DNA from: Phaeodactylibacter sp.
Lineage (GTDB): Bacteria; Bacteroidota; Bacteroidia; Chitinophagales; Saprospiraceae
DNA: 64,000 nucleotides
Direction: 5' to 3'
Assembly: GCA_020436535.1 (NCBI GenBank)
Contig: JAGQXQ010000110.1
Location: forward strand, 368 to 64,367
Of the stretch, positions 2,741 to 35,743 are shown piece by piece. The notes beneath the pieces are model-generated. The model was given only the letters and a program-made list of their open reading frames with translations, had not been told where the DNA came from and made no database searches. Made by a program: the position numbers and the translations under genes. The number at the start of each line of letters is the position of its first letter. Position 1 is the stretch's first letter.

Positions 2741-5020
2741 TCAGTGCAGGATCACCTTTCGGGTAACTACAGAGGTATTCACTCCTTCCACGCGGAGAAA
2801 ATAAAGGCCGCCGGGAAGGCTTTTCGGTAAAGTAATCCGTATAGCCCCATCGCCTGACACTTCTTGCTCCACCTCAATGTATTGGCTATCAACATTCATC
2901 AGGTGTACTTCCTTCAGTGCTTCTCCAATTGAGGACACAAAAAGATAAGCCCGGGCGGGATTGGGGAACACCTCCACCTGAAAGCTACCAGGCTCGCCCG
3001 GTTCCTGTACTCCAACCGCCGGATTCCAGATGCTTCTAAGCTGCCAAAAATTGAAATCGCTTACCTGAGCGCCGTTGCCCTGCTGAAAAAAACGGATACC
3101 ACGCCATCCGAAAAACGGGAATATTCTTGCTGTGATCACCCGCTCGCCTTCATTGACGAACACTTCAATCGAAGATTCATCGAGGAAGATGTGAAAAGTG
3201 ACTGCTTCATCTGTATTTTCCAAAGGCGCGGAGAAGTACTCCTCGAAATCGCCGTAATAATTGGTATTGCCGGAGGCAGAGCGATCCACATAAACTTCGT
3301 TGGCTACGGCATCGAACCCAACTCTGACGCCATCATTCTGATTCTCTCGAAGGAGAATACCGGCGTTGGAGGCACCTCCTGTCCGGAGGGTGAATTTCAG
3401 TTCACATACGCCAGCCCGGAGGTTATTGTCCTCAATAAACTGGTTGGCTTCTGATATGGATTTATTTTCGAATAGCTGGTTGCCGGCACGCAGGGTTTCC
3501 AATTCCCGGACGGGTTCCTGAACCAGGCGCAGCCCATAAGAATATTGCTTCAGTTTCATCCCCCGCGGCAAAGACATGCTTCCACGCCAGGTAGAGGTAG
3601 GGATACTGCCGGCGTAGGCCCAGTTGCTCATCCAGGCCAGCCAGACTCTCTGGTATCCGTTGTCCGGCATGTTTTCCCAGGAGCGGCCTGCATAAAAGTC
3701 GGGGCCGTAATCTGTCCAGAAAGCCCGATCCTCCACATTCTGAGCCAGCTCATCTGAAAAAAGGATGTGGTCGATGTTGATGTGCCCCCAACTGCCGGTT
3801 TCCTGGTCAATGATCTGAATACGCGCCGACTGGTTTACCCATTCACTTACGTTCCAGCCTTCCCACACCAACCTTTCCTGATTCCGGCCAGTAGTGCTTT
3901 TTACAACCTGGCCATTGATCACCAGGCGGATACCTGTACCGCCTGGGTGGTTGCCACCACCGATCAGGAAATTGATGTAATTTTTTTCGATTGTAAAAGC
4001 CGGAGAAGTCAGCGACCCTACCGGCTGGTCGCCATTGAGAAAAGTGTTAACCAGGCCATTGCCTAAATAACCGGTTACAGTTTGTTGGTTCGGCAGCGTG
4101 CCCGGAGCAGGCTCCGTTCCGAAAGCAAGCCCGGCAACCTGCCAACCCGCATAACTTGTGTTTTCAAAGTCTTCGAAAACTTCCCCTTCCGGAACATAGT
4201 TGTCCGAATTAAGCACCTCATCGAACGCTTCATCCAGCAGGAATTGGCTGCCGTCGAAATCGCCGATAAAGTACTGAGTGCCCGACCCACCGGCCGGCCC
4301 GCCCGGGTTAAGGCTGACCATCAGCACCCATTTCTCTTCACCGGTTTCTTCAACTGTAATTGGAAAAAGATCCGGACATTCCCAGACTCCTCCGTGGGCT
4401 CCGATGTTGGCTCCAAAGGCACTCTCGAAGCTCCAACTCTTCAAATCACTTGAAGAGAAAAATTCAATGCGGTCCAGAACCGCCAGGCTCATCACCCATT
4501 TGAAACCAGGGGCATACCAGAAAACCTGGGGATCCCGAAAATCAGGAACGCCTTGATTTTCTAAAACCGGATTGCCGGTATACTTTGTCCACGAGCGGCC
4601 GTTGTCTGTACTGTAAGCAATACTCTGTTGCTGGGTAGCGCCAGCGTGAGTGAATAGCGCGACAATAGCCTCGTTTTCAGCAGTGTTGAAACCGGCTGTA
4701 TTATCCAAATCAACAATTGCTCCGCCTGAAAAAATGGCACCGAGGCCATCTTCGTACAGAGCTACCGGTAAATTTTCCCAGTGCACCAGGTCCCTGGAGA
4801 CAGCATGCCCCCAAGACATGTTACCCCATTGTGTGCCCTGTGGATTGTACTGATAAAACAAGTGGTACTCCCCATCGTAATAAACATTGCCACAGGGGTC
4901 GTTGATCCAGTTTGCCGGAGGGGAAAAATGGATTTGCGGGCGATAGAGCTCCTGGTAGTCTTGCCCCTTTAGCGGCAGAGACACAGCAATTCCTAACATT
5001 AGCATAAATATTCCTTTCAT
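2741..5020 (-). CDS. GH32 fructan hydrolase with nested extra beta-sandwich-like module and T9SS C-terminal sorting domain
   Basis: The ORF track gives 2741..5173 (810 aa). A canonical signal peptide MKGIFMLMLGIAVSLPLKGQ begins at the internal ATG 5018-5020, so the shorter start is preferred. GH32 blocks: WINDPCG, WGHAVS, FSGGAIVD, FRDPQVFW, WECPDLF. About 150 extra residues (FEDFENTSYAGW...WGHINIDHILFSDE) lie between YFIGDFDGSQF and FWTDYGPDFYAG. The C-terminus VEVFPNPARAYLFVS...GLYFLRVEG...KVILH looks like a T9SS sorting domain. Confidence 0.85.
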   Translation of the reverse strand: MKGIFMLMLGIAVSLPLKGQDYQELYRPQIHFSPPANWINDPCGNVYYDGEYHLFYQYNPQGTQWGNMSWGHAVSRDLVHWENLPVALYEDGLGAIFSGGAIVDLDNTAGFNTAENEAIVALFTHAGATQQQSIAYSTDNGRSWTKYTGNPVLENQGVPDFRDPQVFWYAPGFKWVMSLAVLDRIEFFSSSDLKSWSFESAFGANIGAHGGVWECPDLFPITVEETGEEKWVLMVSLNPGGPAGGSGTQYFIGDFDGSQFLLDEAFDEVLNSDNYVPEGEVFEDFENTSYAGWQVAGLAFGTEPAPGTLPNQQTVTGYLGNGLVNTFLNGDQPVGSLTSPAFTIEKNYINFLIGGGNHPGGTGIRLVINGQVVKSTTGRNQERLVWEGWNVSEWVNQSARIQIIDQETGSWGHINIDHILFSDELAQNVEDRAFWTDYGPDFYAGRSWENMPDNGYQRVWLAWMSNWAYAGSIPTSTWRGSMSLPRGMKLKQYSYGLRLVQEPVRELETLRAGNQLFENKSISEANQFIEDNNLRAGVCELKFTLRTGGASNAGILLRENQNDGVRVGFDAVANEVYVDRSASGNTNYYGDFEEYFSAPLENTDEAVTFHIFLDESSIEVFVNEGERVITARIFPFFGWRGIRFFQQGNGAQVSDFNFWQLRSIWNPAVGVQEPGEPGSFQVEVFPNPARAYLFVSSIGEALKEVHLMNVDSQYIEVEQEVSGDGAIRITLPKSLPGGLYFLRVEGVNTSVVTRKVILH

Positions 5021-5181
5021 GATATTGTCTGGTTTGTAATTTCCCCACCCGATAGCAAGCGAATTGTTATCACTAGTGCCTCGGGCATTAAGTAACGGGG
5101 CAGTTCCCGTCTGTTTAGCCGGGCAAGATTTGTTTGCGCAATCCCTAAATGACGAATGGAGCCCTGACAACATATTTGGCC

Positions 5182-7071
5182 TTATTTAACCTGCACAAAC
5201 TTTTTAGTGCTTACCGTATCTTTTCCCCTGATACATACGACCAGAATAGGCGTATCAAAATTGGATAAGGCAATTTTCTGGCTCTGGTTGGGCAGGAAAA
5301 AGAGTTCCTGCCGCTTGATTACCCTGCCGATCATATCGCTCACCACCAGGGTGCATTCGTAAAATTGATAACCCTGGTAGTCCAGCTCGACACGCTGGCT
5401 GGCTGGATTGAACCGTATCTTCATATCCTGTTGTAGAAAAATGCCCTCTGTACTTACTCTTTCCTCCGCCGATTCGCGCTGCACGATGCGATGTACCTGA
5501 TTAATAGCCGGAGTATAGATCGTTTCCATATTCCCACCCGGCCAAAAGACCTGGACAGAATCAACCTGATCCAAATCGGCCAGGCCGAAGTGCACTACCG
5601 AAGAATGTTGAGAAGCATGGCTGGAACCGCCGCTCACCTCTTGTATCCTTTTCCGCCAACCGTGGTGGAGGACAACCTTCGCTCCAAAAGCATCGCGATT
5701 GGATAAATTGCCTTCGAGGCGAAAGGCGATCCAGTTCCTGTCGGATGAACGGTTTTCGTAGTACTGCAAGAAATTTGTCGGGCCCGGAAAAAGGATATCG
5801 TTGGTTACGGTTAACAGGTCGATTTTCCCGTCTCTATTAAAATCAGCATAGACAGCCCCACGGGATAAGCCTTCGAAGGTTATGCCACTTTCGGCGCCAA
5901 CATTTTCAAATTGGTGGTTTTGCCCCCCTAGCAGCAAGTGGTCCTCTTGCCTGTATCCGTCCCGGTCAATAGCAGAGGCTACAAAGCCATTGGCGATAAA
6001 GAGGTCGAGGTAAGTATCGTTGTTCACATCCGCGAAAAAGGTTCCCCAACCCGTAGTGTACAGGGCAGTACCAAGGGCATAGGCGTCTTCCAGGCCTAAA
6101 TATGGCGCCAGGTCGGCAAATGTCTTGTTTCCCTGGTTTTCGAAAAAACGGTTGGCGGCAATATTGGTGATGTAAAAATCAGGATCCAGGTCCTCATCAT
6201 AATCTCCAACGGCAATGCCCATACCATACATTTCAGCATCCATGCCCGAGGCTTCACTGATGTCTGCGAAAGAAGGTGCCGGATAGTCGTTTTGGTATAA
6301 AGCGTTGGGCAAAACCCAGCGGCCGAAATCATTGGCGACTAAGAGGTCGGGGTCGCCGTCCAGGTCGATGTCGGAGGAAGTAGCAGCCAATGTACACCCA
6401 TCATTGATCAATCCATAGATTACTGAACGGTCTGAAAAGAATTGCTTACCGTTATTGATGTATAGAGGGTTGCGGCCGCAATTGTGGTCAAAACCTACCA
6501 CTTGGCTTCCCTCCGTGATGACGCCCGGTTCCTCTACATAATTGAGGACGTAGAGGTCGAGAAAACCGTCCAGGTTGACATCAAAGAAGTGGCCTCCCAT
6601 GCAGAAGGACTTATCCTTTAATCCGAAATCCATAGCGTGATCTTCAAATTGGTTGAGTTCCGCATTAAATTGGAGCAAAAGGTTTTTGCTCCATACTCCT
6701 TCTGTATTAACCGGGCCAATGGTACCGACAAATATCTCACGAAGGCCATCATTGTCTATGTCGCCAGTCGTGACCGAAGTAGTCACCACATTTTTAGTCA
6801 GCTCCACAATACCAAACTGCTCGCTGACATTGGTAAAATTACCGGCGCCATCGTTGAGGAATAAGGCGTCATGCTCAGTGCCTCCGGTTACGTACAAATC
6901 TTCATCGCCATCATTGTCCACATCGAAAGCGGCAGCTCCGCCGCCCATCAACAGCATTCCGTTGTGTACGAACTGCAAGCCGGCACTTAAAGAACGCTCC
7001 TCGAACGAAACTTGTGCCGTTGCAGTTTGCAAGACAGACAGGATTATAATGGCCTGTAAAATTCTGGACAT
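5182..7071 (-). CDS. FG-GAP/VCBS repeat + UnbV_ASPIC (CRTAC1-like) protein with T9SS C-terminal domain
   Basis: 629 aa. Signal peptide MSRILQAIIILSVLQTATAQ. Repeated Ca-binding FG-GAP loops: DVDNDGDEDLY, DIDNDGLRE, DVNLDGFLDLY, DIDLDGDPDLL, DYDEDLDPDFY, DVNNDTYLDLF, DFNRDGKIDLL. UnbV_ASPIC-like segment SGGSSHASQHSSVVHFGLADLDQVDSVQVFWPGG. The C-terminal ~80 aa (IRFNPASQRVELDY...KFVQVK) resembles a T9SS sorting domain. Confidence 0.8.
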   Translation of the reverse strand: MSRILQAIIILSVLQTATAQVSFEERSLSAGLQFVHNGMLLMGGGAAAFDVDNDGDEDLYVTGGTEHDALFLNDGAGNFTNVSEQFGIVELTKNVVTTSVTTGDIDNDGLREIFVGTIGPVNTEGVWSKNLLLQFNAELNQFEDHAMDFGLKDKSFCMGGHFFDVNLDGFLDLYVLNYVEEPGVITEGSQVVGFDHNCGRNPLYINNGKQFFSDRSVIYGLINDGCTLAATSSDIDLDGDPDLLVANDFGRWVLPNALYQNDYPAPSFADISEASGMDAEMYGMGIAVGDYDEDLDPDFYITNIAANRFFENQGNKTFADLAPYLGLEDAYALGTALYTTGWGTFFADVNNDTYLDLFIANGFVASAIDRDGYRQEDHLLLGGQNHQFENVGAESGITFEGLSRGAVYADFNRDGKIDLLTVTNDILFPGPTNFLQYYENRSSDRNWIAFRLEGNLSNRDAFGAKVVLHHGWRKRIQEVSGGSSHASQHSSVVHFGLADLDQVDSVQVFWPGGNMETIYTPAINQVHRIVQRESAEERVSTEGIFLQQDMKIRFNPASQRVELDYQGYQFYECTLVVSDMIGRVIKRQELFFLPNQSQKIALSNFDTPILVVCIRGKDTVSTKKFVQVK

Positions 7072-7111
7072 AGGATATAGTTTTAATGGACTAATCGTAA
7101 TGTCATTGCGC

Positions 7112-9352
7112 TTACCGATCCAAAACAGTTAACTTTACTACGATTGTTTCTTTCTCGGAACGCAATGCCACCAGGTAAAAACCCGGGGGCAAATCGATAG
7201 GTATGCCATTGGAATTGACATTGTTTTGCCTGAAAGCCAACTTGCCGTCGGCAGTAAAAATAATGAAGTCCCATGCTACTCCACCCTCTGAAAATTGTTC
7301 GAGCCAAAGCGTCTCTCCTTGCCGAACGGGATTGGGAAAAAGCACTGCGTCATTGGATGCGGGCCGCACCGGCGTTGAACCAGTTGGCAACACTCCCCAG
7401 ATGGAAGCCAATTGCCAAGCCCTGAGGCTGGACATACTTACCGGTGCATTTTTGGAAAACAACTCGATGCCCAAGGCGTCTTCTGCAGGAAATATCAGGG
7501 AAGTAAATACATATTCTCCGTCATTGACAAAAACTTCAGCGGACAACTGGTCGATGAAAATATGGAAAGTAATCTGAGGCACCTTGGGGATGACTGGGGC
7601 CCTGGACTCCGAATTGAAATTAGCAATAAATACATCACTGGCGTTCACCCGGTTGAGATATAATTCTGATGTTTTTTCATTGTAGCCCAATACGAGCTTT
7701 TTATTGCCTTTGACACATAAATTCAAGCCAAAATCCTGGCCGCTGCCGGCTTGTACGTCAAAGGTAACGATCATTTCATAGGTGTTCCTGGAGGGTTCAA
7801 ATTGGTTTAAGGGCAGGGTGTTTTCAATTATGCCAGAACCTACTACAACAGAATCTTCTCTTAATTTTTTCAACTCTTCTATCGGTTGTTGCACCAGTTT
7901 GTAACCTTGCGTAGAAGAAGAGACAAGGCTTAGGGAACGCGGAACAGAATGTCCAGTGCTTGCCCCCCAGGTTGTAGGAATATTATTAGCATAACGCCAA
8001 TTATTCATCCATCCAAGCCAGACTACCCTGTCCTCGGCGTTATCATAATCTTTAAAGGATTTGGCAGCGTAAAAATCCGGCGCCCAATCGGCCCAATACG
8101 CGTGTTCTACCTTGGTACCCATGCTGGTATTCGAGAAGTAAATGTTGTCAACCAGGATATGCCCCCAGCCCCAGATGGCATTATCCACAATCTGAAGCTT
8201 TGCCGTTGCGCCCAAAAATTCTGAAACATCCCAGGATTCCCAGAACAAAATCTCTGAATTATTCCCCTGAGCCGCCCGGGCGGTTTGGCCATCGACGATC
8301 AGCCTGATCTCGGTATTGCCGGCAAAATTGCCGCCTGAGATCAAAAAATTAATAAAGCTGTGGTTGATCTGAAAATCAGGGGAAGTCAGCATACCAGTGG
8401 CGAAATCACCGTTCTGGTAAGTATTGGCCAAAAAATCGCCGAGGAAACCCAACACCCTACCCTGGTTGCCCAAAGCTCCCGGCGCTGGGTTGGCCCCAAA
8501 GGCATTGCCCGTCGCCGTCCAGCCATTGTAGCCATTTTCGAAATCTTCAAATAGTACTTCGCCAATTCCCTCGCCATGATTGATATAACCATCCGCCACT
8601 TCGTCCATGGTGAATGTGGTTCCATCAAAATCGCCCACCCAGTATTGAGTCCGGTTGGGGCCCATTCCACAAGTCATCACCCATTTCATGTTGGAAGGGT
8701 CGCCATCCAGCGGCAATTGGAATAGGTCGGGCACCTCCCATACTTCCTTCTGAGCCCCTTCTCTTTCAAACTTGCTCAGATATGTCCAGGAGATCAGGTC
8801 ATCGGAAGCATAAACCTCAATGGCCCGGTCCAGCGGCCGGGTGATCACCATGATCCAGCGTTCGGTTTGAACATCCCAAAAAACTTGCGGATCTCTGAAA
8901 TCGGTACTGTTGGACGGGATGACCGGGTTGCCGGAATAGTACTGAAACTGCTCATAGTCTAAACTCGTCGAAATCCCCTGCGATTGAAACCCTGTAATGC
9001 GGTTATTCATGGTGTAAATGGCCACCATTGCGGTATCCATGGCTGTGCCAAAACCGCTCCTATTATTGACATCCACGACGACGGAACCGGTGTAATAGTC
9101 AAAGGTGCCGTTGTCGCCCGTCATGGCCCACCCTTTATCTTCCCAAAAAACCAGGTCTTCCGAGGTAGCCTGCCCCCACCAAAAAAGGCGGTAAGTATCC
9201 TGAAACCGGATGGCACCGGTGGGGTCGCCTATCCATCCACTTGCCGGGCTGAAGTGAAACTGAGGGCGGTATTTTTGGGTATAATCCTGCGCCGGCAGGG
9301 TTGAAAACCCGACTGAGACAAAGAACAAAAACAGCCTATAAGATTTTTTCAT
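7112..9352 (-). CDS. Divergent GH32 fructan hydrolase with nested extra module and T9SS C-terminal sorting domain
   Basis: The ORF track gives 7112..9394. The signal peptide MKKSYRLFLFFVSVGFSTLPAQ starts at ATG 9350-9352, 1 nt after the upstream stop at 9354-9356. GH32 blocks are present but variant: WIGDPTG, WGQATS, YTGSVVVD, FRDPQVFW, WEVPDLF. The inserted module is FEDFENGYNGW...WGHILVDNIYFSN. The C-terminus AVLFPNPVRQGETLWLE...GFYLVALRSEKETIVVKLTVLDR is T9SS-CTD-like. Confidence 0.85.
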   Translation of the reverse strand: MKKSYRLFLFFVSVGFSTLPAQDYTQKYRPQFHFSPASGWIGDPTGAIRFQDTYRLFWWGQATSEDLVFWEDKGWAMTGDNGTFDYYTGSVVVDVNNRSGFGTAMDTAMVAIYTMNNRITGFQSQGISTSLDYEQFQYYSGNPVIPSNSTDFRDPQVFWDVQTERWIMVITRPLDRAIEVYASDDLISWTYLSKFEREGAQKEVWEVPDLFQLPLDGDPSNMKWVMTCGMGPNRTQYWVGDFDGTTFTMDEVADGYINHGEGIGEVLFEDFENGYNGWTATGNAFGANPAPGALGNQGRVLGFLGDFLANTYQNGDFATGMLTSPDFQINHSFINFLISGGNFAGNTEIRLIVDGQTARAAQGNNSEILFWESWDVSEFLGATAKLQIVDNAIWGWGHILVDNIYFSNTSMGTKVEHAYWADWAPDFYAAKSFKDYDNAEDRVVWLGWMNNWRYANNIPTTWGASTGHSVPRSLSLVSSSTQGYKLVQQPIEELKKLREDSVVVGSGIIENTLPLNQFEPSRNTYEMIVTFDVQAGSGQDFGLNLCVKGNKKLVLGYNEKTSELYLNRVNASDVFIANFNSESRAPVIPKVPQITFHIFIDQLSAEVFVNDGEYVFTSLIFPAEDALGIELFSKNAPVSMSSLRAWQLASIWGVLPTGSTPVRPASNDAVLFPNPVRQGETLWLEQFSEGGVAWDFIIFTADGKLAFRQNNVNSNGIPIDLPPGFYLVALRSEKETIVVKLTVLDR

Positions 9353-9353
9353 C

Positions 9354-12300
9354 TCACTGAAGGTTGAGGGTATATTGAAACAATTGTAAGGCACCGTTAT
9401 TATTCACGACTAAAATGCCGGTTTTGCCACCCGCCAATGAGATGCGCTTCATGTTTATCACATCATTTGGGACGAAAAAACCGCTTTGCGACACTGTCAA
9501 TTGCTGGAAGTTGCCGTTTTTGTCCGCCTGCAACACCAAGCCTATCCCGGCATCTGCCCGGGTCGTTTCCACTTCTGCCGCATAGTGATTGCCCCCTAAC
9601 ACCAGGTCTTTGATGTTGTCTTGATTCACATCGGTTACGACAATGCCTTTAAGGGGGAACATTTGCGCCTCAATGGGTAAGTTTATGATCCTGAACCGGC
9701 CGCCTTCATTGATCAGCATTACGCTTTCGAAGATATGGGCCTCGTAAGTAAAGGCTTCTTTGATGTTTTCAGCGCCGTAAATTTGCAGGACATTGGCGTC
9801 GGCAAATGCGCTGAAGGTTGGAAATTTTTCTTTCAGGCTGGGGGTTTGCACCGAAGAACAGGTTTTACCCCGGATGGGCATGTAGTCGCCTTGCACTTCT
9901 TTGGTTAAAACGATCTCCACCGTGCCGTTTTTATCAAAATCGCCGGCGTATACTTTGAATGGTTTTTCAGGAGAAGTATGGAATTTATAATTCAGGCCCA
10001 GGTTGCCGGCTATAAAATCCAGGTCGCCGTCGCCATCGATATCATGTGCGGCAATCCGGTTCCACCAACCTCTGGTTTGGCTTAAACCAAGATCCTCGGT
10101 CGCCAGTTGGAGCAAGCCCCCATTGTTTTTGAAAACTTCAATACGCATCCACTCCCCTACCACGATCAGGTCATCGTCCTGATCGCCATCTGCATCCGCC
10201 CAAATGGCGTCCGCCACCATGCCAATCTCCTGCATTTCGGCTGTTGTAGCTTCCGCAAATTTCCCCCTATCGTTCCTGAGTAAATAACTTTTCGGGGTGA
10301 AAGGATATTGATCGGGCAAAATGCGCCCTCCGACGAACAGGTCCAGGTCGCCGTCTTGGTCATAATCAGCGGCGGCGACGCTACCACCACTGGCGTTTAT
10401 GACAGGAAGTGCAGCTACGGCCAGAGAAAAAGCACCGTTATTATTCAGATACAGCCTATCCTGATATTCTTGCCCGGTAGCTCCAAATTCACTGCCGCCA
10501 CTCACCACATACAGGTCGTTGTCCCCGTCCTGGTCAGCGTCGAAAAGCAGGGCACCAACATCTTCGTAGTTATTATCTTTTTCAAAAGCAGGCTGGTTGC
10601 TTTTTGAAAAAGAACCGTTTTGATATTGGAGATATAAACAACCTGCCTGCCGGGTAGCTCCACCCACAAAAAAATCTTCCAGCCCATCCCCATTTACATC
10701 GCCGACAGCCAGGGAGGGGCCGTTGGCAGATTCACGGTGGGGCAGTAAGACCTGATTTTTGAAATCGTCGAATTCATTTTCCTGGTGTACAAAAGGGGGA
10801 ATGATGGATGACGTTTTTTCGGTAAAATAGGGGGTGGCAGGGGATTGAGGCTTTGCCGCAGGTTGTGCTGTTTTGTAATCAATGGCCAGCACCTGATTAG
10901 TGGCTACGTTTTCCAGGCGGCTTACCTGGCCATCCAGCCAAACCACTTCTACCAACGGAATTTCTGTTAAGCGCCCGGTTCCAAAATGCAGGGTACTTTC
11001 CGAATTAGACAGATACCCCCTGGTGACAATCGCTTCCTGAAACTGTAGAATCTTGCCGTTTCCGTCTTTTAAATAGGCCTTGGCGTTGCGGGGCTTCACT
11101 TGTTTTGAGCCTTTCAGGTTTATCCTCAGATAACCGTTTTCGAGCTTTTCACTTTTGTTTTCAAATAAAAAGGCTTTGCTGTCTGAATTATTGGTGACGA
11201 TATCCAGGTCGCCGTCATTGTCGAGGTCCGCCACCACGCAGCCGTTAGAAAAAGACAAAGTATCCAGCCCCCAGGTGGTTGAATAATCCGAAAACGCCAA
11301 CCCGTTGCCATCATTTCGATACATAAAGTTTTTCGCCTCTCCCGAAGGCAGGTCATTGAGCAAATCCTCTATTTTTTCGGGATAGTTCTGGGTCCGGTAA
11401 CGCTCTTCTATTTTGGCGGCAAAATCCTGGTCGGTGACGTATTTTTTCAAACCGTTGGTGATGTAAATGTCTTTGTATCCGTCGTTGTCAAAATCGGCGA
11501 GGTGCCCCGCCCAGCTCCAATCCGATTTTGACACTCCTGCCAGTTGCGAGATTTCGCTGAAGGGCACGACCTGTTCAGGCCGGCCCTGGTTGCCGCCGTT
11601 GTTCAACTGCAGCATATTGTGCCCGTACTGGTAGTTGTAGCCCCATTCAATCGACTTTTTAAATGCCACAGGATCAACCATGGCCATAGAGGTTTTGCTG
11701 CGTTTATAGTCCTTGGGCATCATATCCAGCACGAAAAGATCGGTCAGGCCGTCATTGTTGATATCTGCGGCATCCGACCCCATGCTAAATAGAGAGGTAT
11801 GCTTGAAATATTCCTTGCTTTGTTCCCTGAAGGTGCCGTCGCCCTGATTGATATAGAGATAATCGGGCGTTACAAAGTCATTCCCAATGAAGACATCCGT
11901 CCAGCCGTCGTCATTAAAGTCGGCCGACAGTACGCTCAGGCCAAAGCCTATATCCGATAAAATGCCGGCTGCTGCGGAGACATCGGCAAAGGTGCCGTCG
12001 CCGTTGTTTTGATACAAAATATCATTTGAATTGAGCGCTTTAAACCCTTCCTCCTGGTGGAAATAATCCATCTTGCCCATCTTGCGGGTATAGGAAAAAT
12101 CAGTTGTTGTATTGATCAGGAACATATCCAGGTCGCCGTCTTTATCATAATCGAAGAAGGTCGACTGGATGGAATTCCGGGGGTCGTCCAGGCCATAGTT
12201 TTTTGCGGATTCAGTGAAGGTGGCGTCGCCGTTATTGATGTACAGCAAATTGCGTTTGATAAAATCTTCTTTATACCAGCCGGAGCGACAGATATAGATA

Positions 12301-12698
12301 TCCAAAAACCCATCGTCGTTGATGTCGACCATGTTGGCACCTGTGCGGAAACCTTCATTGGCGCCTACGCCGGCTGCTTCGGTAATGTCTTCAAATTGCA
12401 GGTTGCCTCGGTTGAGGTACAATTTGTTCTGGCCGAAATTCGAATTGAAATACAGGTCCGGCAGCCCGTCGTTATTGATGTCGCCGACGGCAATGCCCGC
12501 GCCCATATAAAGCTGCATAAAGACGAAATAATTGACCGTACGGTTCTCAACGATGAAGTTGTTAAAATCAATGCCGGATTGTTCGGGGGGTATCAGCTCA
12601 AATAGTTTGATAGCGGCAGAGTCATTCCCGAGATCCAGACGGTTTTGGCAAGATCCAATTATTGTGATCAATAAAATATATAGTGCTGTCTTTTTCAT
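9354..12698 (-). CDS. Large FG-GAP/VCBS repeat + UnbV_ASPIC (CRTAC1-like) lipoprotein
   Basis: 1114 aa. Lipoprotein signal ILLITIIGSC. About 14 FG-GAP Ca-loop repeats (DINNDGLPDLY, DINDDGFLDIY, DYDKDGDLDMF, DFNDDGWTDVF, DINNDGLTDLF, DFDNDGYKDIY, DLDNDGDLDIV, DVNGDGLEDFF, DADQDGDNDLY, DYDQDGDLDLF, DIDGDGDLDFI...). Central UnbV_ASPIC-like segment TRGYLSNSESTLHFGTG...VVWLDG. Apparent architecture is propeller-UnbV-propeller. Confidence 0.85.
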   Translation of the reverse strand: MKKTALYILLITIIGSCQNRLDLGNDSAAIKLFELIPPEQSGIDFNNFIVENRTVNYFVFMQLYMGAGIAVGDINNDGLPDLYFNSNFGQNKLYLNRGNLQFEDITEAAGVGANEGFRTGANMVDINDDGFLDIYICRSGWYKEDFIKRNLLYINNGDATFTESAKNYGLDDPRNSIQSTFFDYDKDGDLDMFLINTTTDFSYTRKMGKMDYFHQEEGFKALNSNDILYQNNGDGTFADVSAAAGILSDIGFGLSVLSADFNDDGWTDVFIGNDFVTPDYLYINQGDGTFREQSKEYFKHTSLFSMGSDAADINNDGLTDLFVLDMMPKDYKRSKTSMAMVDPVAFKKSIEWGYNYQYGHNMLQLNNGGNQGRPEQVVPFSEISQLAGVSKSDWSWAGHLADFDNDGYKDIYITNGLKKYVTDQDFAAKIEERYRTQNYPEKIEDLLNDLPSGEAKNFMYRNDGNGLAFSDYSTTWGLDTLSFSNGCVVADLDNDGDLDIVTNNSDSKAFLFENKSEKLENGYLRINLKGSKQVKPRNAKAYLKDGNGKILQFQEAIVTRGYLSNSESTLHFGTGRLTEIPLVEVVWLDGQVSRLENVATNQVLAIDYKTAQPAAKPQSPATPYFTEKTSSIIPPFVHQENEFDDFKNQVLLPHRESANGPSLAVGDVNGDGLEDFFVGGATRQAGCLYLQYQNGSFSKSNQPAFEKDNNYEDVGALLFDADQDGDNDLYVVSGGSEFGATGQEYQDRLYLNNNGAFSLAVAALPVINASGGSVAAADYDQDGDLDLFVGGRILPDQYPFTPKSYLLRNDRGKFAEATTAEMQEIGMVADAIWADADGDQDDDLIVVGEWMRIEVFKNNGGLLQLATEDLGLSQTRGWWNRIAAHDIDGDGDLDFIAGNLGLNYKFHTSPEKPFKVYAGDFDKNGTVEIVLTKEVQGDYMPIRGKTCSSVQTPSLKEKFPTFSAFADANVLQIYGAENIKEAFTYEAHIFESVMLINEGGRFRIINLPIEAQMFPLKGIVVTDVNQDNIKDLVLGGNHYAAEVETTRADAGIGLVLQADKNGNFQQLTVSQSGFFVPNDVINMKRISLAGGKTGILVVNNNGALQLFQYTLNLQ

Positions 12699-12701
12699 GT
12701 T

Positions 12702-15700
12702 TTAATACTTTTCAATCAGCTCAACGAAATCATTGTTCCTGGCAAACAACCAAGCTTTTCGGGTTCTCGCCAGTTGTATGGCTGCTCCGCTTTTCACATC
12801 CCCTTTCAGATACAATCCACTTTGAAAAGGTGGCAGTACTTTGAAAAAACCTGCTTTGTCATTTATCAGCACCAAGCCATAACCGGCGTCGTTCCTCGGG
12901 GTTTCGACTTCAGATTGGTAAAGGTTGCCGGCGACAATAACATCGGAAAAACCATCGTCATTCAAATCTGTGATTTCGATGACGTTGATAGAAGAGAGTT
13001 GAGCCATCGCCGGCAAAACCCGAACCTCGAAATCACCTCCTCCTTTATTTTCGAAATAGGTGGAGGCGAAAGTTTTAGCCGTGTAATGCATGGCCTCCTC
13101 CAGGCCCATATCTCCATAAACCTGTTTTAAAGTAGCCTTGCCGAAGGCATCGTAGGTAGGGAATTTTTCTTTGATCTGCGGCACCTGCTGGGCGCTGCAT
13201 TGCCGGCCTCTAAGCGGGTATAAATTGCCGCCATTGTAATAGCCCAGAGCGATGTCCTGGCTTCCGTTTTTATCAAAATCGGTGGCATATACTTCAAAAG
13301 GCGCTTCAACCGAAGCTTTATATTTATAATTCAGCCCCAGGTTGCCGGCGATGAGGTCGAGGTCGCCGTCCTGGTCAAAATCGCCGGTTTGCAGACTGGA
13401 CCACCAGCCTTGTGTATTGGCCAAACTTTCCGTTTCCAGCCGCTCAAATTTTCCGTCCTTTTGTTCAAAAATAGTGACGGGCATCCACTCCCCTACCAGG
13501 ATCAGGTCTAACTTGCCGTCCCCTGTAACGTCCGCCCAATTGGCGTCTGTCACCAGGCCAATGTTGTTCAGATCAGGCAGGATATCGGTAGTTATATTTT
13601 TGAATACGGCCTTGTCTCTGGTGCTCAGGTTTTTCAGGATCAGGCTGCTTGCCGGCAGAGGATATTGTTGAGGGATCAACCGCCCTGCGACGAAAAGATC
13701 CGTTTTCCCATCCTGGTCATAATCCGCCGCCACTACTTTCCCGCCACTGCTTGAAATATAAGGTATGGCTGTGGCAGAAAACTGTCCCAGCCCGTCATTA
13801 AGGTATAACCTGTCCTGGTAATCCAGGTGAAGAGCGGGATATTCATTGCCACCGCTCACTACATACAGATCCTGGTCGCCATCACCCTCTACATCGAGAA
13901 ACAAGGCGCCGACATCTTCATATTTTTTATCTGCTTCTGTAAAGGAGGCAGGCTGTTTTTCAAATGTCCCGTCTTCCCGCTGAAAATACAGGGCCCCTTC
14001 ATAGCCCATGGCGCCGCCGATATAGAAATCATCCAGGCCGTCGCCATTTGCGTCAGCTATAGCTAAGGCCGGCCCGAATTCCGACATTTTATGGGGTAGC
14101 AGCACTTCTTTTTCAAAATCATCGTAGCTGTTTTCGATATGCCGGTGGTGAAGGCGGGCGGCTTTGGTACTGTTTTTTAAAAAAGGCCGGCTAGTGGCTC
14201 TCTGTGTTTTGGTGTTGCCGGCATCGGCATATTTGAGGGTTACTCTTTGATCAGCCCGAACACTGGGCAGCAATTGTTCTTTGCCATCCGGCCAGATGAC
14301 GATGAGGGTGTCAACCATTTTTTGGATGCCCAGGCCAAAATGCAACAACGGCTCCACCGAAGATTGATAACCCCGGCTGAGCTGCATTTCATGGAGCTGA
14401 ATTTGGCCATCGTATTTTAAAGCTACTCTTGTGCCAATGCCAAGCGGATTCTGAGCGGTGCCTTCCAGTTTGATTTGTAAATAGTGGTGCTGCGTCAGAT
14501 TCGAAGTATTGTTTTCATAAATAACCGCCGGCTCACCGGTCATGTTGGCCACTATATCCATATCGCCGTCGCCGTCCAGGTCGGCGTAAGCGGCGCCGGT
14601 AGCCACATTTTCCCAATCGCCCGCCGCCCAAGTTTCAGAAACATTGGCAAACTGTAAATTTCCCTGGTTTCTGAAGAAGTAATTGCGTTTGGGGCGTTGG
14701 GGCATTTTTTCCAGCACATCTTTAATGTATTGTCCCAACAACTGAGGATTTTCACGACCTTGCATTTGGGCCTCCATTTGAGCCATACGCTGCTTTTTGT
14801 AGGCCAGGAAATCATTGTTCCGAAAATCCCTTTTGATGCCGTTGGACACAAACAGGTCTCTATAGCCGTCATTGTCCATGTCGATGAGCAAAGGCGCCCA
14901 ACTCCAGTCCGTACTGGAAATGCCAGCTAACTGGCCGATCTCCGAAAAGTATGGATAAAGGTTCCCTTCGGCATTTCCGTTGTTCAGTTGAAGGGAGTTG
15001 AACATATACTGATGGTGCAGCCCCAGATTGACGTGCAATTGGAACAGGCCGGGGTTCATCGCGCTCATACTTGTTTTAATGCCGTAGTTGTCTTCGGACA
15101 CCATATCTAACGCCACGATGTCCAGCCAGCCATCGTTGTTCACATCGGCAATATCGTTGCCCATAGCGTAGTTGGAAATGTGGTTGGTTGCCTCTTTGGC
15201 TACTTCGGAAAAAGTCCCGTCCTGGTTGTTCAGGTACAGGAAATCTCTTTCTGAAAAGTCATTGCACAGATAAATATCCGCCCAACCATCGTTGTTGACA
15301 TCGCCAATGCCCACGCCCAGGCCATCGCCCAGCAAAGAATTTTTCATTCCAGCCTGCTCAGAAACATCGGTAAAATGAGCATCATCGTTGCGGTACAGCC
15401 GGTCGCCCCACAGCTCGGCCCAGGTTTGGCTGAACATTTCCAGGTCTTGATCGGTATAGGGTTTTAACCCATAATTGGAAAAGAACACATCGAGGTCGCC
15501 ATCTTTATCGTAATCAAAAAATGCCGCCTGGGTAGTCGTATATAGTACATCCAGGTTGTACTTTGCCCCTTCTTCTTTGAAGGAGGGAATACTGTTTTCA
15601 TTTACACCCTGATTGACATACAACACATTTCGGGTCAAATCCGCCCCAAAGGCGCCTGACTTGCAAACATAAATATCCAGCAGGCCATCTGCATTGATAT

Positions 15701-16076
15701 CCACCATGGTAGTGCCAGTATGGTATCCCAGCCCACCCCACACATTAGCTTCAGCGGTAACATCTTTGAATTTCAGGTGACCCAGGTTAAGGTACAAGCG
15801 GTTGGTGTCGAGGTTAGAAACAAAGTAAATATCGGGAAGGCCATCTCCGTTGACATCACCGACAGCCAGGCCGGCGCCGTTGTAGTAATAATCGTGAAAA
15901 AGGGCGTTGAGTTGAAGGGTTTCTTTCACGTCATTGACAAATGCGATACCTGTATTTTCAGATTTCAGAATGGAGAAAAGAGGCAATGTGGAGGTATCCT
16001 CTACCTTCTGCTTCTGACAAGAAACGAAAGCAAGCGCCATACAAATGCCAATGATAAGATAACCCCGCTTCAACAT
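12702..16076 (-). CDS. Large FG-GAP/VCBS repeat + UnbV_ASPIC (CRTAC1-like) lipoprotein, tandem paralog of 9354..12698
   Basis: The ORF track gives 12702..16121. The lipoprotein signal MLKRGYLIIGICMALAFVSC starts at ATG 16074-16076. It has the same repeat architecture: DVNGDGLPDIY, DINADGLLDIY, DYDKDGDLDVF, DVNNDGWADIY, DVNNDGWLDIV, DMDNDGYRDLF, DLDGDGDMDIV, DANGDGLDDFY, DVEGDGDQDLY, DYDQDGKTDLF, DFDQDGDLDLI. UnbV-like segment SRGYQSSVEPLLHFGLG...VIWPDG. The stop is 3 nt from the next start. Confidence 0.85.
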   Translation of the reverse strand: MLKRGYLIIGICMALAFVSCQKQKVEDTSTLPLFSILKSENTGIAFVNDVKETLQLNALFHDYYYNGAGLAVGDVNGDGLPDIYFVSNLDTNRLYLNLGHLKFKDVTAEANVWGGLGYHTGTTMVDINADGLLDIYVCKSGAFGADLTRNVLYVNQGVNENSIPSFKEEGAKYNLDVLYTTTQAAFFDYDKDGDLDVFFSNYGLKPYTDQDLEMFSQTWAELWGDRLYRNDDAHFTDVSEQAGMKNSLLGDGLGVGIGDVNNDGWADIYLCNDFSERDFLYLNNQDGTFSEVAKEATNHISNYAMGNDIADVNNDGWLDIVALDMVSEDNYGIKTSMSAMNPGLFQLHVNLGLHHQYMFNSLQLNNGNAEGNLYPYFSEIGQLAGISSTDWSWAPLLIDMDNDGYRDLFVSNGIKRDFRNNDFLAYKKQRMAQMEAQMQGRENPQLLGQYIKDVLEKMPQRPKRNYFFRNQGNLQFANVSETWAAGDWENVATGAAYADLDGDGDMDIVANMTGEPAVIYENNTSNLTQHHYLQIKLEGTAQNPLGIGTRVALKYDGQIQLHEMQLSRGYQSSVEPLLHFGLGIQKMVDTLIVIWPDGKEQLLPSVRADQRVTLKYADAGNTKTQRATSRPFLKNSTKAARLHHRHIENSYDDFEKEVLLPHKMSEFGPALAIADANGDGLDDFYIGGAMGYEGALYFQREDGTFEKQPASFTEADKKYEDVGALFLDVEGDGDQDLYVVSGGNEYPALHLDYQDRLYLNDGLGQFSATAIPYISSSGGKVVAADYDQDGKTDLFVAGRLIPQQYPLPASSLILKNLSTRDKAVFKNITTDILPDLNNIGLVTDANWADVTGDGKLDLILVGEWMPVTIFEQKDGKFERLETESLANTQGWWSSLQTGDFDQDGDLDLIAGNLGLNYKYKASVEAPFEVYATDFDKNGSQDIALGYYNGGNLYPLRGRQCSAQQVPQIKEKFPTYDAFGKATLKQVYGDMGLEEAMHYTAKTFASTYFENKGGGDFEVRVLPAMAQLSSINVIEITDLNDDGFSDVIVAGNLYQSEVETPRNDAGYGLVLINDKAGFFKVLPPFQSGLYLKGDVKSGAAIQLARTRKAWLFARNNDFVELIEKY

Positions 16077-16152: not shown

Positions 16153-17394
16153 CTAATTCTTTATCAAATAATTGATGGAGTTCTTTGCCATCGTTTCCAG
16201 GTTACCCTGGTATGCATTAATACCGTCCGGATTAATCTCAGACTCAGCGCCATTTTCACCGGTTGCATTCTGATTAAACTCCGCTCCGCCTACCCCATTG
16301 TAGATCACCCGGCCCTGGTACTCTCCGGAGGGCAAAAATTCCAACATGCCGGCCACCCGGTAATCGTTTTGCCAGTCCCATGAGCCTAGCCAAACCACGT
16401 CAAATTCAGAGGTGAATTCTTCGTAAATCCGCTCCACCGGCTGGTCGAATGGCTCGCCGTAGTAGTCAGGCAGTTTATCCATCATGTAGTTCCGGTCTTC
16501 CTTCCATCCCGGGCTGCTGACCGGGATCCATTTCTGGCTGCCATTGTCTTCAAACTGAATGCCTGCAAAGACGGGGTGGCTACTCATATCATGAATGGCA
16601 CCCGGCACCACCCCGATACCCCAGGTGTCAGGATTGTCAAAACCTGGGCCGCCGCCGCCGATAGCCGGCCCCAGGATCGTATTGGTGGGCATCCGGCCGG
16701 TCAGAAAGATCATCTGGCAACCGTATTGGTACAGGTACATGTTGCCTCCAGCTTTAAACCAGTCGGTGATAGCACCCAAAACATCCGGGTCGACCGCCAT
16801 AGGCGGCGTCCAGAAAGCAAGGGTTACCGGGTCGCCGTCCAGCAGCCACCAAAGAACTTTGATGTCATCGAGTACGGTTGGGTCTGCTTTAATATCGTCG
16901 AAGCTGACAAAACGGGTAACCTCCTTATCAAAAGTGTTGAAGAGCCACTCAGCAGCAGCCGACTCGTCATCATCGGTGATGGCGGCAGGGCTGGAATGGT
17001 GGCTTAAAAAACCTACAATACACAACACATCGGCCGAGACGGTATACGTACTGAACAGGTTGCCATTGGTGATGGTGTATTGCACCGGCGATGAAAGGTC
17101 AACGCTGGTACCGGAAGCGGGGGTGATAGAAGCGCCAGAGGAGATGCTTATATTCGGGGTGATGCTCTTCACGTCTGTACCACAAGGATACTTGAGCGTG
17201 ACCGTTTTGTTGCTTTCATTAATAATGACCTCATCCGCTCCATTGACGGTGAAATCTTGTATTAACAACTCCTTGTCAAAAATATCCAGGGTAATATCAT
17301 CCAGTTTTTCCTTTTTACAGGAGAAAAAAGACAATGCCAGGAGAAGGAGCAGGCCTAACTTGCCGGGCTGTATGTTTAAAAAATTCATGATCAT
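16153..17394 (-). CDS. Surface lipoprotein, DUF4960-like; candidate surface glycan-binding protein of the fructan PUL
   Basis: 413 aa. Lipoprotein signal LLLLLALSFFSC. It lies immediately downstream of SusD, the position occupied by the SGBP in Bacteroides fructan PULs. There is an N-terminal Ig-like segment (FTVNGADEVIINESNKTVTLKYPCGTDVKSITPNISIS) followed by a segment IVGFLSHHSSPAAITDDDESAAAEWL...IKVLWWLLDGD, which I recall as DUF4960-like. This has not been verified by HMM. Confidence 0.6.
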   Translation of the reverse strand: MIMNFLNIQPGKLGLLLLLALSFFSCKKEKLDDITLDIFDKELLIQDFTVNGADEVIINESNKTVTLKYPCGTDVKSITPNISISSGASITPASGTSVDLSSPVQYTITNGNLFSTYTVSADVLCIVGFLSHHSSPAAITDDDESAAAEWLFNTFDKEVTRFVSFDDIKADPTVLDDIKVLWWLLDGDPVTLAFWTPPMAVDPDVLGAITDWFKAGGNMYLYQYGCQMIFLTGRMPTNTILGPAIGGGGPGFDNPDTWGIGVVPGAIHDMSSHPVFAGIQFEDNGSQKWIPVSSPGWKEDRNYMMDKLPDYYGEPFDQPVERIYEEFTSEFDVVWLGSWDWQNDYRVAGMLEFLPSGEYQGRVIYNGVGGAEFNQNATGENGAESEINPDGINAYQGNLETMAKNSINYLIKN

Positions 17395-17481: not shown

Positions 17482-19194
17482 CTAATATCCAGGGAGTTGC
17501 TGATACAATCCACCACTGATATTGATCTGCTGCTGAGGAATAGGCATATATTCATGATGCCCCTGTTCAAATATGGCGTCTTTCAGGTACTCCTTTCTGG
17601 TTTTCTCCACAGCCAGATAGGCGTCGATGGTTTCTTTGGCCACGCCCCAGCGCACCAGGTCGAAGAATCTCCAGCCTTCCAAACCCAGTTCCAAACGCCG
17701 TTCCAAACGCAATGCCTGGCGGGCATATTCCTGAGTCCAGTTGGAGCCGTCATATTGGCTGATATTGTAAATGGAAGCATTGTTAAGCCTGCCGGTGCTG
17801 TTGGCAGCTCGTTGCCGGATTTGGTTGATGATGGGCAGGGCTTCCATCTGGCGTCCCAACTCAATAAGGGCCTCGGCTTTCCACAACAGTACATCTGCGT
17901 AACGGATAAGGACCGTATTCATCGAAGAAATGGTGAACGGGCCATTGGCGGCGCGGCAGGGGCAATCAGGATGTACCAGTTCTTTCATGGAACCGAAGGC
18001 GCCATATACATTGGGCGCCCGTGCCCAGGCATTGCCATCGACGATCAAGCTGGGATCATATTTGAATGGCTTGCCATCCATATAGACGGTGTGGTCCAGG
18101 CGGGGGTCAACCGCGTCAACGGCCGGGTTGTAATTCGCATCATTGAAAGTGTCAAACAAGGGCAACCCATCAGAACCAGTTTTAAAGGCATTGACAAAGT
18201 TTTCAGTGGGCACGTGAAAACCACAGCATCCGAATTCTGCCGATTGTGGGTAGTTCAAAGCGGTGGACCAAGTGCCGCGCCCGTCGGGAGAACCATCATT
18301 GATAGATCTTTGAATTGCAAAAACGGATTCAGTGTTGTTTTCAAATTCCCAAAGGAAGTTCTCGGCGAAGTCTGCTACCAGGGCATATTGGCCGGAGGCT
18401 TCTATTTGATCCACCAGGCTAACCACTTCTTCCAGTTTGGCGTTGTCGATATTGATAACCTGATGCTTATCATCCTGCACATAAGCCTGGTAAAGCAGTG
18501 CCTTGGCCAGGTAGGCCATAGCGGTAAACTTATTGACCCGGCCTACCTCCGGCTGTGTTTCGGGCAGATTGCTGACCCCAAACCGGAATTCATCTGCAAT
18601 TTTAGTCCACAGTTCCTGGTCGGATAGGGCAACATTGGAAATCTTCGTGATCTCGTCGTCCGGGACAGTCTCATCAAAATAGGGCACAAGCTTATGATGA
18701 ATCTTCAGGTCAAAATAGAAGTGCCCCCGCAGAAAACGAAGCTCCGCCTGGCGCACGGCTTTTAATGGAAAATCCGCTTCGCTTACTTCATTGAGCACTC
18801 TCAAAGCCGAATTGCAGCGAACAATGCCGGTATACTGCCGCTGCCATTTATTGTTGTTGTGGTCGGTGAAATCCGGCGGATAAGAAGACATATCGGCAAT
18901 GATCAGTGGGTAAACCGACAAGGCGTGGTAGATAAAAATGTCGCCGGGCCCGTTGCCGCCCTTATGGGCGTCGCCCGCTCTGAGGTTGCCGGTAGTCCAC
19001 AAATAGTTTGGCGCCGTGTAGTGGTCGTTGCCCAACCAGGAATAAGCCGCTATAACCAGCCGGTCGATGTTGTCGAGCGTTTTCACCTGGTCTTCACTGA
19101 GCACCGCCTTGGGCGTCTCGTCGAGAAAATCTTTACAGCCGAACAAGCTGGCCGCCAGCACCGCTAGGATGAAGTATTTTTTAATATTTCTCAT
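17482..19194 (-). CDS. SusD/RagB-family nutrient-binding outer-membrane lipoprotein
   Basis: 570 aa. Lipoprotein signal ILAVLAASLFGC followed by KDFLDETPKAVLSEDQV, typical of SusD N-termini. It lies 19 nt downstream of SusC. Confidence 0.9.
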   Translation of the reverse strand: MRNIKKYFILAVLAASLFGCKDFLDETPKAVLSEDQVKTLDNIDRLVIAAYSWLGNDHYTAPNYLWTTGNLRAGDAHKGGNGPGDIFIYHALSVYPLIIADMSSYPPDFTDHNNNKWQRQYTGIVRCNSALRVLNEVSEADFPLKAVRQAELRFLRGHFYFDLKIHHKLVPYFDETVPDDEITKISNVALSDQELWTKIADEFRFGVSNLPETQPEVGRVNKFTAMAYLAKALLYQAYVQDDKHQVINIDNAKLEEVVSLVDQIEASGQYALVADFAENFLWEFENNTESVFAIQRSINDGSPDGRGTWSTALNYPQSAEFGCCGFHVPTENFVNAFKTGSDGLPLFDTFNDANYNPAVDAVDPRLDHTVYMDGKPFKYDPSLIVDGNAWARAPNVYGAFGSMKELVHPDCPCRAANGPFTISSMNTVLIRYADVLLWKAEALIELGRQMEALPIINQIRQRAANSTGRLNNASIYNISQYDGSNWTQEYARQALRLERRLELGLEGWRFFDLVRWGVAKETIDAYLAVEKTRKEYLKDAIFEQGHHEYMPIPQQQINISGGLYQQLPGY

Positions 19195-24830: not shown

Positions 24831-24851
24831 TTTGTATGTTTTCCGTTTTAA

Positions 24852-24859
24852 CAAATTTA
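24852..24859 (-). promoter_or_regulatory. Candidate Bacteroidota -7 promoter box (TAAATTTG) for the MFS porter/fructokinase unit
   Basis: Forward caaattta is TAAATTTG on the minus strand, 22-29 nt upstream of ATG 24830. This is a motif match only. If real, it argues against the TTG start at 24854. Confidence 0.25.
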
Positions 24860-35678: not shown

Positions 35679-35743
35679 TAGAACTGGCAGAAAAAAATTA
35701 ACTTCCCGGACCAGATTTCCCTTTCTTGAAAAATCGATCATTC

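Follow-up and report, generated by a model that had tools for sequence, protein, structure and literature searches.

The fructan utilization locus of a Phaeodactylibacter species, contained in a 64,000-nucleotide stretch of contig JAGQXQ010000110.1 (the window), encodes three calcium-loop propeller proteins that we interpret as accessory, most likely non-catalytic, cell-surface binding or tethering modules of the SusC/SusD fructan-uptake system, with a probability of roughly 0.45. Twelve minus-strand genes, all co-directional, span positions 1085-27901 and by their domain content make up a complete Bacteroides-type polysaccharide utilization locus (PUL) for fructan, with the three propeller genes interleaved as extras. 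To judge from their signals and nearest relatives, VCBS-A and VCBS-B are lipid-anchored double propellers drawn from a slowly evolving family and slotted into the locus from at least two of its branches, and VCBS-C is a single-propeller paralogue probably secreted through the type IX secretion system (T9SS), one of a small clade that belongs to this type of fructan PUL in all seven loci examined. The interpretation builds on features that are directly supported, namely domain content, export signals, fold, conserved synteny, a generic association with SusC and SusD, and the pattern of conservation.

All three proteins belong to the FG-GAP/VCBS plus UnbV_ASPIC (CRTAC1-like) family, and every mark of membership that could be looked for is present. 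FG-GAP_3 is matched in VCBS-A, -B and -C with E-values of 1e-72, 6e-75 and 4e-31 (241, 248 and 108 bits, cut-off 26.9), the FG-GAP domain is additionally matched in each, and UnbV_ASPIC scores 76, 54 and 66 bits against a Pfam gathering score of 23.4. The strict calcium-loop motif D.[DN].[DN]G..[DE], from which Ca2+ binding is predicted, occurs 12, 12 and 5 times, compared with 0.02-0.03 in shuffled sequences, and ASPIC motifs are found as GYQSSVEPLLHFGLG in VCBS-A, GYLSNSESTLHFGTG in VCBS-B and SQHSSVVHFGLA in VCBS-C. FG-GAP and ASPIC are the only domains that Pfam and NCBIfam recognise in the three, with no fructan-active enzyme domain among the matches, and no curated NCBIfam model matches VCBS-A or VCBS-B. 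The two large proteins are 43-44% identical to each other and both keep all family-invariant residues. The open reading frame (ORF) of VCBS-A reaches 16121, with its lipoprotein signal, MLKRGYLIIGICMALAFVSC, beginning at 16076, in agreement with the initial annotation; VCBS-B has the lipobox IIGSC, and VCBS-C carries a cleavable Sec signal peptide, MSRILQAIIILSVLQTATAQ.

The initial annotation of this DNA, made from the letters and their translations, had described three ORFs of this family with DxNxDGxxD-type calcium loops and ASPIC motifs, two of them lipoproteins, and in all of this it was right. Its assignment of a T9SS tag to VCBS-C stands in part. Most VCBS-C homologues at 45-50% identity carry the T9SS sorting domain Por_Secre_tail (PF18962), and the predicted structure ends in a 7-strand beta-sandwich at residues 550-626 (approximately amino acids 548-629, window 5185-5430); the protein's own PF18962 match, over profile positions 4-74 of 75, is sub-threshold, with 20.5 bits (E 6e-4) where the cut-off is 27, and VCBS-C has no match to TIGR04183 in NCBIfam.

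AlphaFold2 models, built from alignments of 116 sequences for VCBS-A and 106 for VCBS-C, have a mean predicted local distance difference test score (pLDDT) of 92.7 and a predicted template modelling (pTM) score of 0.92 for the former, and 93.2 and 0.85 for the latter. In VCBS-A a first propeller (residues ~34-540) is followed by an ASPIC beta-sandwich (~550-630) and a second propeller (~665-1124), with helical insertions at 330-350 and 421-457 in propeller 1 and at 958-994 in propeller 2. VCBS-C has one propeller (residues 23-440) and the UnbV_ASPIC domain (446-530) ahead of its C-terminal sandwich, so that a beta-sandwich after the propeller is common to both models. The sole strong relative of either model in the PDB is mouse CRTAC1 (9etn), which Foldseek aligns to VCBS-A with an E-value of 1e-25 (TMt 0.74) and to VCBS-C with 2e-30 (TM 0.67/0.76). 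CRTAC1 likewise has an FG-GAP calcium-loop propeller followed by an UnbV_ASPIC beta-sandwich, and is the only strong sequence match to the VCBS proteins (E 1e-13 to 1e-33), although identity is only 18-22%. Unlike them it belongs to the extracellular matrix of eukaryotes, has an EGF-like tail and lacks a lipid anchor, a T9SS domain and a second propeller, and we know of no role for it in glycan use.

The next matches to VCBS-C, at E-values near 1e-7, are integrin alpha-V and the fungal lectins PAL and PVL of Psathyrella and AAL2 of Agrocybe (PDB 2bwr, 5mb4, 4tqm). These lectins are seven-bladed FG-GAP-type propellers that bind N-acetylglucosamine, which makes a lectin role feasible for the fold; they match only weakly (TM ~0.32/0.45, 12-14% identity) and have no ASPIC domain. 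Sequence and profile searches of the PDB returned only CRTAC1 and integrin alpha chains. Neither in those sequence searches nor among the 50 Foldseek matches listed per model was there a glycoside hydrolase (GH32, GH68, GH91, GH172) or other carbohydrate-active enzyme (CAZyme), and the listed PDB matches of either model likewise contained no propeller lyase (e.g., PL11, PL24/25, PL42). A hydrolase or lyase match for the VCBS proteins was thus looked for, and not found, by sequence and among the listed matches by fold.

The link between the propeller genes and the PUL is conserved. Six to seven related fructan PULs were found, in three gene orders, and all have a VCBS-C orthologue at 57-61% identity; SusC orthologues in the related PULs score 1,700+ bits. 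A Chitinophagales metagenome-assembled genome (MAG), locus L001, has an arrangement identical to the window, with orthologues of VCBS-A and VCBS-B at 73 and 77% identity; VCBS-A of the window itself is 100% identical to a protein of a Phaeodactylibacter sp. MAG (Saprospiraceae). In the PULs with the two further orders, SusC and SusD score >1,000 bits per protein against those of the window. The order SusC-SusD-DUF4960-GH32-GH32-VCBS-C is seen in L084/85, L086 and L096, and the order SusC-SusD-DUF4960-VCBS-C-large VCBS-GH32-GH32(-GH32) in L089 and L094, the last of which also has the transporter (MFS, major facilitator superfamily) and kinase (PfkB) genes and is headed by an orthologue of the window's hybrid two-component system (HTCS) regulator. 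Four of the six to seven loci, L001, L089 and L094 among them, have large copies as well. VCBS-C has thus been kept through three rearrangements, and the adjacency is not unique to this genome, a possibility that the initial annotation had named and that the loci just listed rule out. A metagenome scan with a profile of the VCBS-C clade returned two loci only, one of them useful (L094).

Among the seven loci examined, the 57-61% clade is confined to fructan PULs. A sister clade, at 45-52% identity and with a clear T9SS C-terminal domain, lies outside PULs, in a neighbourhood conserved in three genomes: a 1,175-aa HisKA histidine kinase, a ~160-aa protein, the VCBS-C-like protein, a 494-aa FGE-sulfatase-like protein and a ~380-aa protein. 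This non-PUL neighbourhood of core genes suggests that the PUL-borne VCBS-C arose as a duplicate of a T9SS protein of the core genome. The fructan clade has no more than 14 residues specific to it, and they form no aromatic or obvious sugar-binding platform.

The large double propellers have a much wider distribution, their family comprising 4,515 clusters at 50% identity (E <= 1e-30). Two peptide patterns seeded a scan that took a single genome from each species and gave at least 590 relatives, of which the best 80 were analysed; they represent Flavobacteriaceae, Cytophagales, Chitinophagales, Saprospiraceae, Bacteroidales, Rhodothermales and Gemmatimonadota. In 60 of these 80 loci SusC is no more than 10 kb away from a large VCBS gene, and the direct order SusC-SusD(-like)-VCBS occurs in 45 (37 of the 63 with at least 6 kb of upstream sequence), where divergent SusD was partly missed by phmmer and recovered by Pfam only. 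Two to four large copies stand in one same-strand cluster in 26 of the 80, and a GH32 gene inside the VCBS cluster in none of these loci from other species. The nearest relatives of VCBS-A, at 54-55% identity, are found in SusC/SusD loci without GH32 that are controlled by extracytoplasmic function (ECF) sigma factors and FecR. By BLASTP, VCBS-A, VCBS-B and the copy in L089 each have different nearest relatives; the copies in fructan PULs are therefore polyphyletic, which implies that large VCBS proteins were recruited at least two to three times, and the idea of a single fructan clade was discarded. Judged by its gene neighbourhoods, this is a generic SusC/SusD-associated family, whatever glycan the locus targets, and since it follows SusC and SusD for many sugars, it probably supplies surface accessory proteins of a general kind rather than new fructan enzymes.

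A Pfam census of 105 downstream and 114 upstream or intervening genes in the 80 loci gives an impression of the company that these proteins keep. It contains PAP2/vanadium-haloperoxidase-like proteins (12 downstream and 5 upstream or intervening), GH20 (7) and GH29 (3 + 2), as well as GH2, GH95, GH97, sulfatases and trehalase, some 14 extra SusD-like proteins, five FecR and three ECF sigma factors. The PAP2/vanadium-chloroperoxidase-like protein, of ~440-460 aa (PF01569, VCPO_2nd, DUF6851), is the commonest non-Sus neighbour. It is found just after or between large VCBS genes in L048, L061, L063, L064, L065, L075, L077, L082 and others, typically in the order SusC-SusD-VCBS-PAP2-VCBS, in Cytophagales, Chitinophagales and Gemmatimonadota. 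In the Gemmatimonadota MAGs (L057, L063, L075, L077 and L079) a SusC-SusD-like pair is followed by one or two large VCBS genes, from which the module would extend beyond Bacteroidota. A third architecture, an FG-GAP plus UnbV_ASPIC protein of ~740 aa, is often encoded directly downstream of a large VCBS gene. In one Chitinophagaceae MAG (L068:4945-23229) a SusC-SusD-VCBS cluster stands tail-to-tail with a separate GH32/SusD/SusC/PfkB/MFS fructan PUL, the genes of which look fragmented, probably through assembly frameshifts.

The large propellers are more conserved than the proteins that they accompany. When 40 SusC-SusD-VCBS triplets were compared with the window proteins, median identity was 42.5% for VCBS (0.73 bits per residue), 30% for SusC (0.32) and 25% for SusD (0.12), and on these alignments the VCBS proteins evolve far more slowly than their cognate SusC and SusD. 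Alignments of 21 and 116 family members have 52-58% mean column identity, with many invariant residues outside the calcium loops; the polar and charged ones include H299, S301, K334, S336, H354, Q356, Y357, D390, K415 and R419, and further on E863, K918, R956, R958, C960, E1056, E1058, R1061 and D1063. The 323 conserved positions were classed by the secondary structure of the model, which places 99 of 245 strand residues (40%), 45 of 88 in the A-B (calcium) loops (51%), 50 of 187 in the B-C loops (27%), 13 of 95 in the D-A loops (14%) and 3 of 53 in the C-D loops (6%) among them. The upper, ligand-binding face of integrin-type FG-GAP propellers consists of the B-C and D-A loops, and the lower one of the calcium hairpins and C-D loops. 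By analogy with this topology, a conserved functional surface may be assigned to the upper face of each propeller, opposite the calcium sites, the call resting on strand order and not on three-dimensional position. This putative surface is made up for the most part of the insertions HHQYMFN, DWSW, NGIKRDFRNNDF, PLRGRECS...KFPTY and SEVETPRNDAGYG, and the surface is the same regardless of the glycan of the PUL.

We infer a binding rather than a catalytic role for the propeller proteins. The conserved loops on the upper face, opposite the Ca2+ loops, would retain polymer, or else a conserved partner, on the cell surface, and would place it beside the T9SS-delivered GH32 fructanases and the complex of SusC/SusD with the levan surface glycan-binding protein (SGBP). 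Such placement would raise substrate capture and hand-over, and the propeller proteins would not themselves be fructan-specific enzymes. VCBS-A and VCBS-B, as lipoproteins, would be exposed on the surface.

Several observations weigh against this interpretation. Glycan-specific binding proteins do not usually retain ~45-55% identity between PULs that target different glycans, and a dedicated levan-SGBP homologue, the DUF4960 protein, is already present in the locus. The structural matches to lectins and integrin are weak (TM ~0.45), the residues after the lipid-modified cysteine give a noisy pattern across the large family with no clear surface-export signal, and the many invariant charged loop residues (H, S, K, R, E, D) might just as well make up an active site. 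The 80-locus set, moreover, is the best-scoring and hence non-random subset of a pattern-seeded scan, in which genes were called by a crude, simple ORF rule and classed by phmmer against the window proteins with pooled Pfam searches. It is possible, if doubtful, that the ~1,100-aa lipoproteins constitute a substrate-independent "third core component" of many environmental SusC/SusD machines in Bacteroidota (and apparently also Gemmatimonadota), acting as a capture or scaffold module or as a hidden enzyme, with the 57-61% VCBS-C clade a T9SS-secreted offshoot specialised for fructan.

An alternative that we consider unlikely is that the double propellers are structural: they would bind a conserved non-glycan partner, such as the SusC barrel, outer-membrane lipopolysaccharide or the anchors of T9SS cargo, and scaffold or stabilise the SusC/SusD utilisome with no contact to the glycan. 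VCBS proteins are indeed much more conserved than SusC and SusD across loci with different CAZymes, their polyphyly in fructan PULs makes the modules look interchangeable, the invariant loops rich in Arg, Lys and Glu lie on one face, and the relatives CRTAC1 and the integrins are protein-binding. However, SusC and SusD, the partners that this reading supposes, show poor conservation of their own, large copies are missing altogether from two of the six to seven fructan PULs (three counting L096), and the two to four paralogues of a same-strand cluster are hard to explain as scaffolds.

It is quite unlikely that the loop face is instead the active site of an unrecognised enzyme family, whether for chemistry common to many substrates (a shared decoration, phosphorylated or anionic groups) or for a new glycan reaction. 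The density of invariant polar and charged residues beyond the calcium loops, the enzyme-like level of conservation and the frequent pairing with PAP2/vanadium-haloperoxidase-like proteins would fit such a family, but no likeness of the VCBS proteins to any enzyme was found in sequence or structure, and binding proteins are their nearest characterised folds; the three GH32 enzymes account in full for fructan breakdown, and anionic groups are absent from fructans.

The initial annotation had offered the three proteins as possible fructan-binding or presenting proteins, or as an unrecognised class of fructan-active enzyme; taken to mean dedicated proteins, all three having evolved for this PUL, the proposal is one that we now regard as very unlikely. 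Tight and conserved co-location with GH32 in six to seven loci speaks for it, as does the restriction of the 57-61% VCBS-C clade, in the loci examined, to fructan PULs while the 45-52% sister clade lies elsewhere. Against it, the closest relatives of the large copies stand in non-fructan, ECF/FecR-controlled SusC/SusD loci, and GH32 is lacking from the VCBS cluster in all 80 other loci. The presence of a levan-SGBP homologue and the mere 14 clade-specific residues of VCBS-C, devoid of an aromatic platform, argue against a dedicated fructan site. The family is generic, polyphyletic in fructan PULs and slow-evolving, and its models resemble no enzyme among the listed matches, all of which weakens the case for a new class of fructan-active protein; a dedicated fructan role could still hold for VCBS-C alone. 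That the propellers are passenger genes, inserted by rearrangement and with no part in fructan use, is hardly credible, for although the related PULs vary freely in gene order and some of them do without the large copies, VCBS-C has been retained through three rearrangements at 57-61% identity with its domains intact, gaps of 1-76 nt imply co-transcription, and all family-invariant residues are kept.

For the preferred reading of surface binding or tethering, the closest known systems offer partial parallels. Every component type of the Bacteroides thetaiotaomicron levan PUL (BT1754-BT1765, with BT1761 as SGBP) is also found in the window PUL. To our knowledge FG-GAP/ASPIC proteins are absent from that PUL, where the surface GH32 is a lipoprotein. 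In the window, unlike B. thetaiotaomicron, two of the GH32 enzymes, and probably VCBS-C too, are exported through the T9SS, and propeller genes totalling 8.6 kb stand among the others; the interleaving and the mode of export of the two GH32 enzymes make this PUL a variant on a known Bacteroides-type backbone. SGBPs of the SusE/SusF type are non-catalytic lipoproteins encoded just downstream of susD, often in several copies, and the window propeller genes share with SGBPs the location in a PUL beside susC and susD. Known SGBPs are chains of beta-sandwiches, of the immunoglobulin-like or carbohydrate-binding-module type, poorly conserved and glycan-specific; the VCBS proteins, in contrast, are double propellers and exceed even SusC in conservation. 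Some sources name these proteins UnbV or "enediyne biosynthesis protein E4", a name that they share through the UnbV_ASPIC family, but the context is that of a PUL and there are no enediyne genes nearby. Searches of the full-text literature yielded nothing that links the ASPIC/UnbV/VCBS/CRTAC1-like family with glycan uptake, in line with the initial annotation, which knew of no defined role for it in glycan use, and no paper was found that assigns one.

SusC/SusD loci are the main route of polymer uptake for Bacteroidota in oceans, soils and guts, and current models of them, derived from gut Bacteroides, contain SusC, SusD, SGBPs and enzymes only. Strongly conserved propeller lipoproteins, which number thousands of 50%-identity clusters, follow SusC and SusD in most of the environmental loci sampled. 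If they are capture or scaffold modules, or enzymes, the annotation of PULs and models of glycan turnover in sea and soil would need an extra component. The fructan PUL and its relatives provide a simple setting for a test, with a defined commercial substrate, known enzymes and natural variants with and without large copies.

The genes of the PUL are listed in Table 1. Pfam and NCBIfam recognise all the parts of a Bacteroides-type fructan PUL, namely an HTCS with a periplasmic binding protein (PBP) sensor, SusC, SusD, a DUF4960 SGBP, GH32 enzymes, a fructokinase and an inner-membrane sugar transporter. DUF4960 is the family called SGBP_levan-binding in newer Pfam, and by this match the lipoprotein is the homologue of the canonical levan SGBP of fructan PULs. 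The neighbours are thus as first described, with SusC, SusD, DUF4960 and three GH32 genes (two with a T9SS C-terminal domain, one a lipoprotein), and the division of the propellers into lipoproteins and probable T9SS cargo does mirror that of the GH32 enzymes. The intergenic distances of 76, 3, 1 and 40 nt given in the initial annotation agree with the coordinates, the 1-nt gap because the GH32 start is taken at 9352, where the signal peptide lies. The propeller genes do exceed the GH32 genes in coding length, as had been claimed, with 8,610 nt against ~6.1-6.3 kb for the three GH32 genes combined. In the GH32 ORF 2741-5173 the first ATG does not open a signal peptide; a good one, MKGIFMLMLGIAVSLPLKGQ, begins at M52 (nt 5020). 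From the long ORF the gap after VCBS-C is 8 nt, and from M52 it is 161 nt, which is probably the true distance and would leave room for an internal promoter. A scan of the intergenic gaps for intrinsic terminators gave none that was convincing, and the counts of the promoter and terminator scans were at chance level and uninformative. Co-expression of the three propeller genes with the PUL seems probable from this layout.

Table 1. Genes of the fructan PUL in the window, followed by loci of other genomes that encode related propeller proteins (CTD, C-terminal domain)
Feature	Position	Strand	Evidence or remarks
HTCS hybrid two-component regulator	25097-27901	-	Pfam: periplasmic sugar-binding PBP sensor + HisKA/HATPase + receiver + AraC HTH; fructose-sensing type
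MFS sugar transporter, inner membrane	23472-24854	-	Pfam Sugar_tr, E 3e-105
PfkB-family sugar kinase, fructokinase position	22503-23390	-	Pfam PfkB, E 6e-54
SusC-like TonB-dependent transporter	19214-22318	-	Pfam CarbopepD_reg_2 + Plug + barrel
SusD-like lipoprotein	17482-19194	-	Pfam SusD_RagB, SusD-like_3
DUF4960/SGBP_levan-binding homologue, lipoprotein (LSFFSC)	16153-17394	-	Pfam PF16324, 58 bits
VCBS-A, 1,124-aa lipoprotein, FG-GAP/VCBS + UnbV_ASPIC	12702-16076	-	Pfam, lipobox, AlphaFold2, Foldseek
VCBS-B, 1,114-aa lipoprotein, same double-propeller architecture as VCBS-A	9354-12698	-	Pfam, lipobox
GH32, signal peptide + T9SS CTD, secreted/surface fructanase	7112-9352	-	Pfam GH32N/C; TIGR04183, 29.8 bits
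VCBS-C, 629 aa, signal peptide, one propeller, UnbV_ASPIC, T9SS-type C-terminal beta-sandwich	5182-7071	-	Pfam, AlphaFold2, Foldseek
GH32 with T9SS CTD	2741-5020 (ORF reaches 5173)	-	Pfam/NCBIfam; signal peptide at M52, nt 5020
GH32 lipoprotein (FSAGAC), 530 aa, exo-fructosidase-like	1085-2677	-	Pfam/NCBIfam
Sister clade of VCBS-C, loci	L087:5857-14504, L090:892-14505, L097:3753-12514		adjoin sucD, enolase, carA
~740-aa FG-GAP + UnbV_ASPIC architecture, examples	L093:3631-5856, L039:10294-12510, L047:13351-15630, L012:6170-9094		

Elsewhere in the window, the segment 43301-49425 has a GC content of 0.40-0.44, low in relation to ~0.50 in the remainder. It encodes a lamin-tail-domain protein with a T9SS C-terminal domain, a TonB-dependent receptor and a PLD-like nuclease that carries DUF5689, a purple-acid-phosphatase N domain and a T9SS C-terminal domain, and from this content it looks like a cluster for scavenging extracellular nucleic acid or phosphate, possibly acquired horizontally. 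A 1,056-aa Sortilin/Vps10-BNR repeat protein is encoded at 35726-38896, and a GH31 enzyme of the alpha-glucosidase type at 59225-61732.

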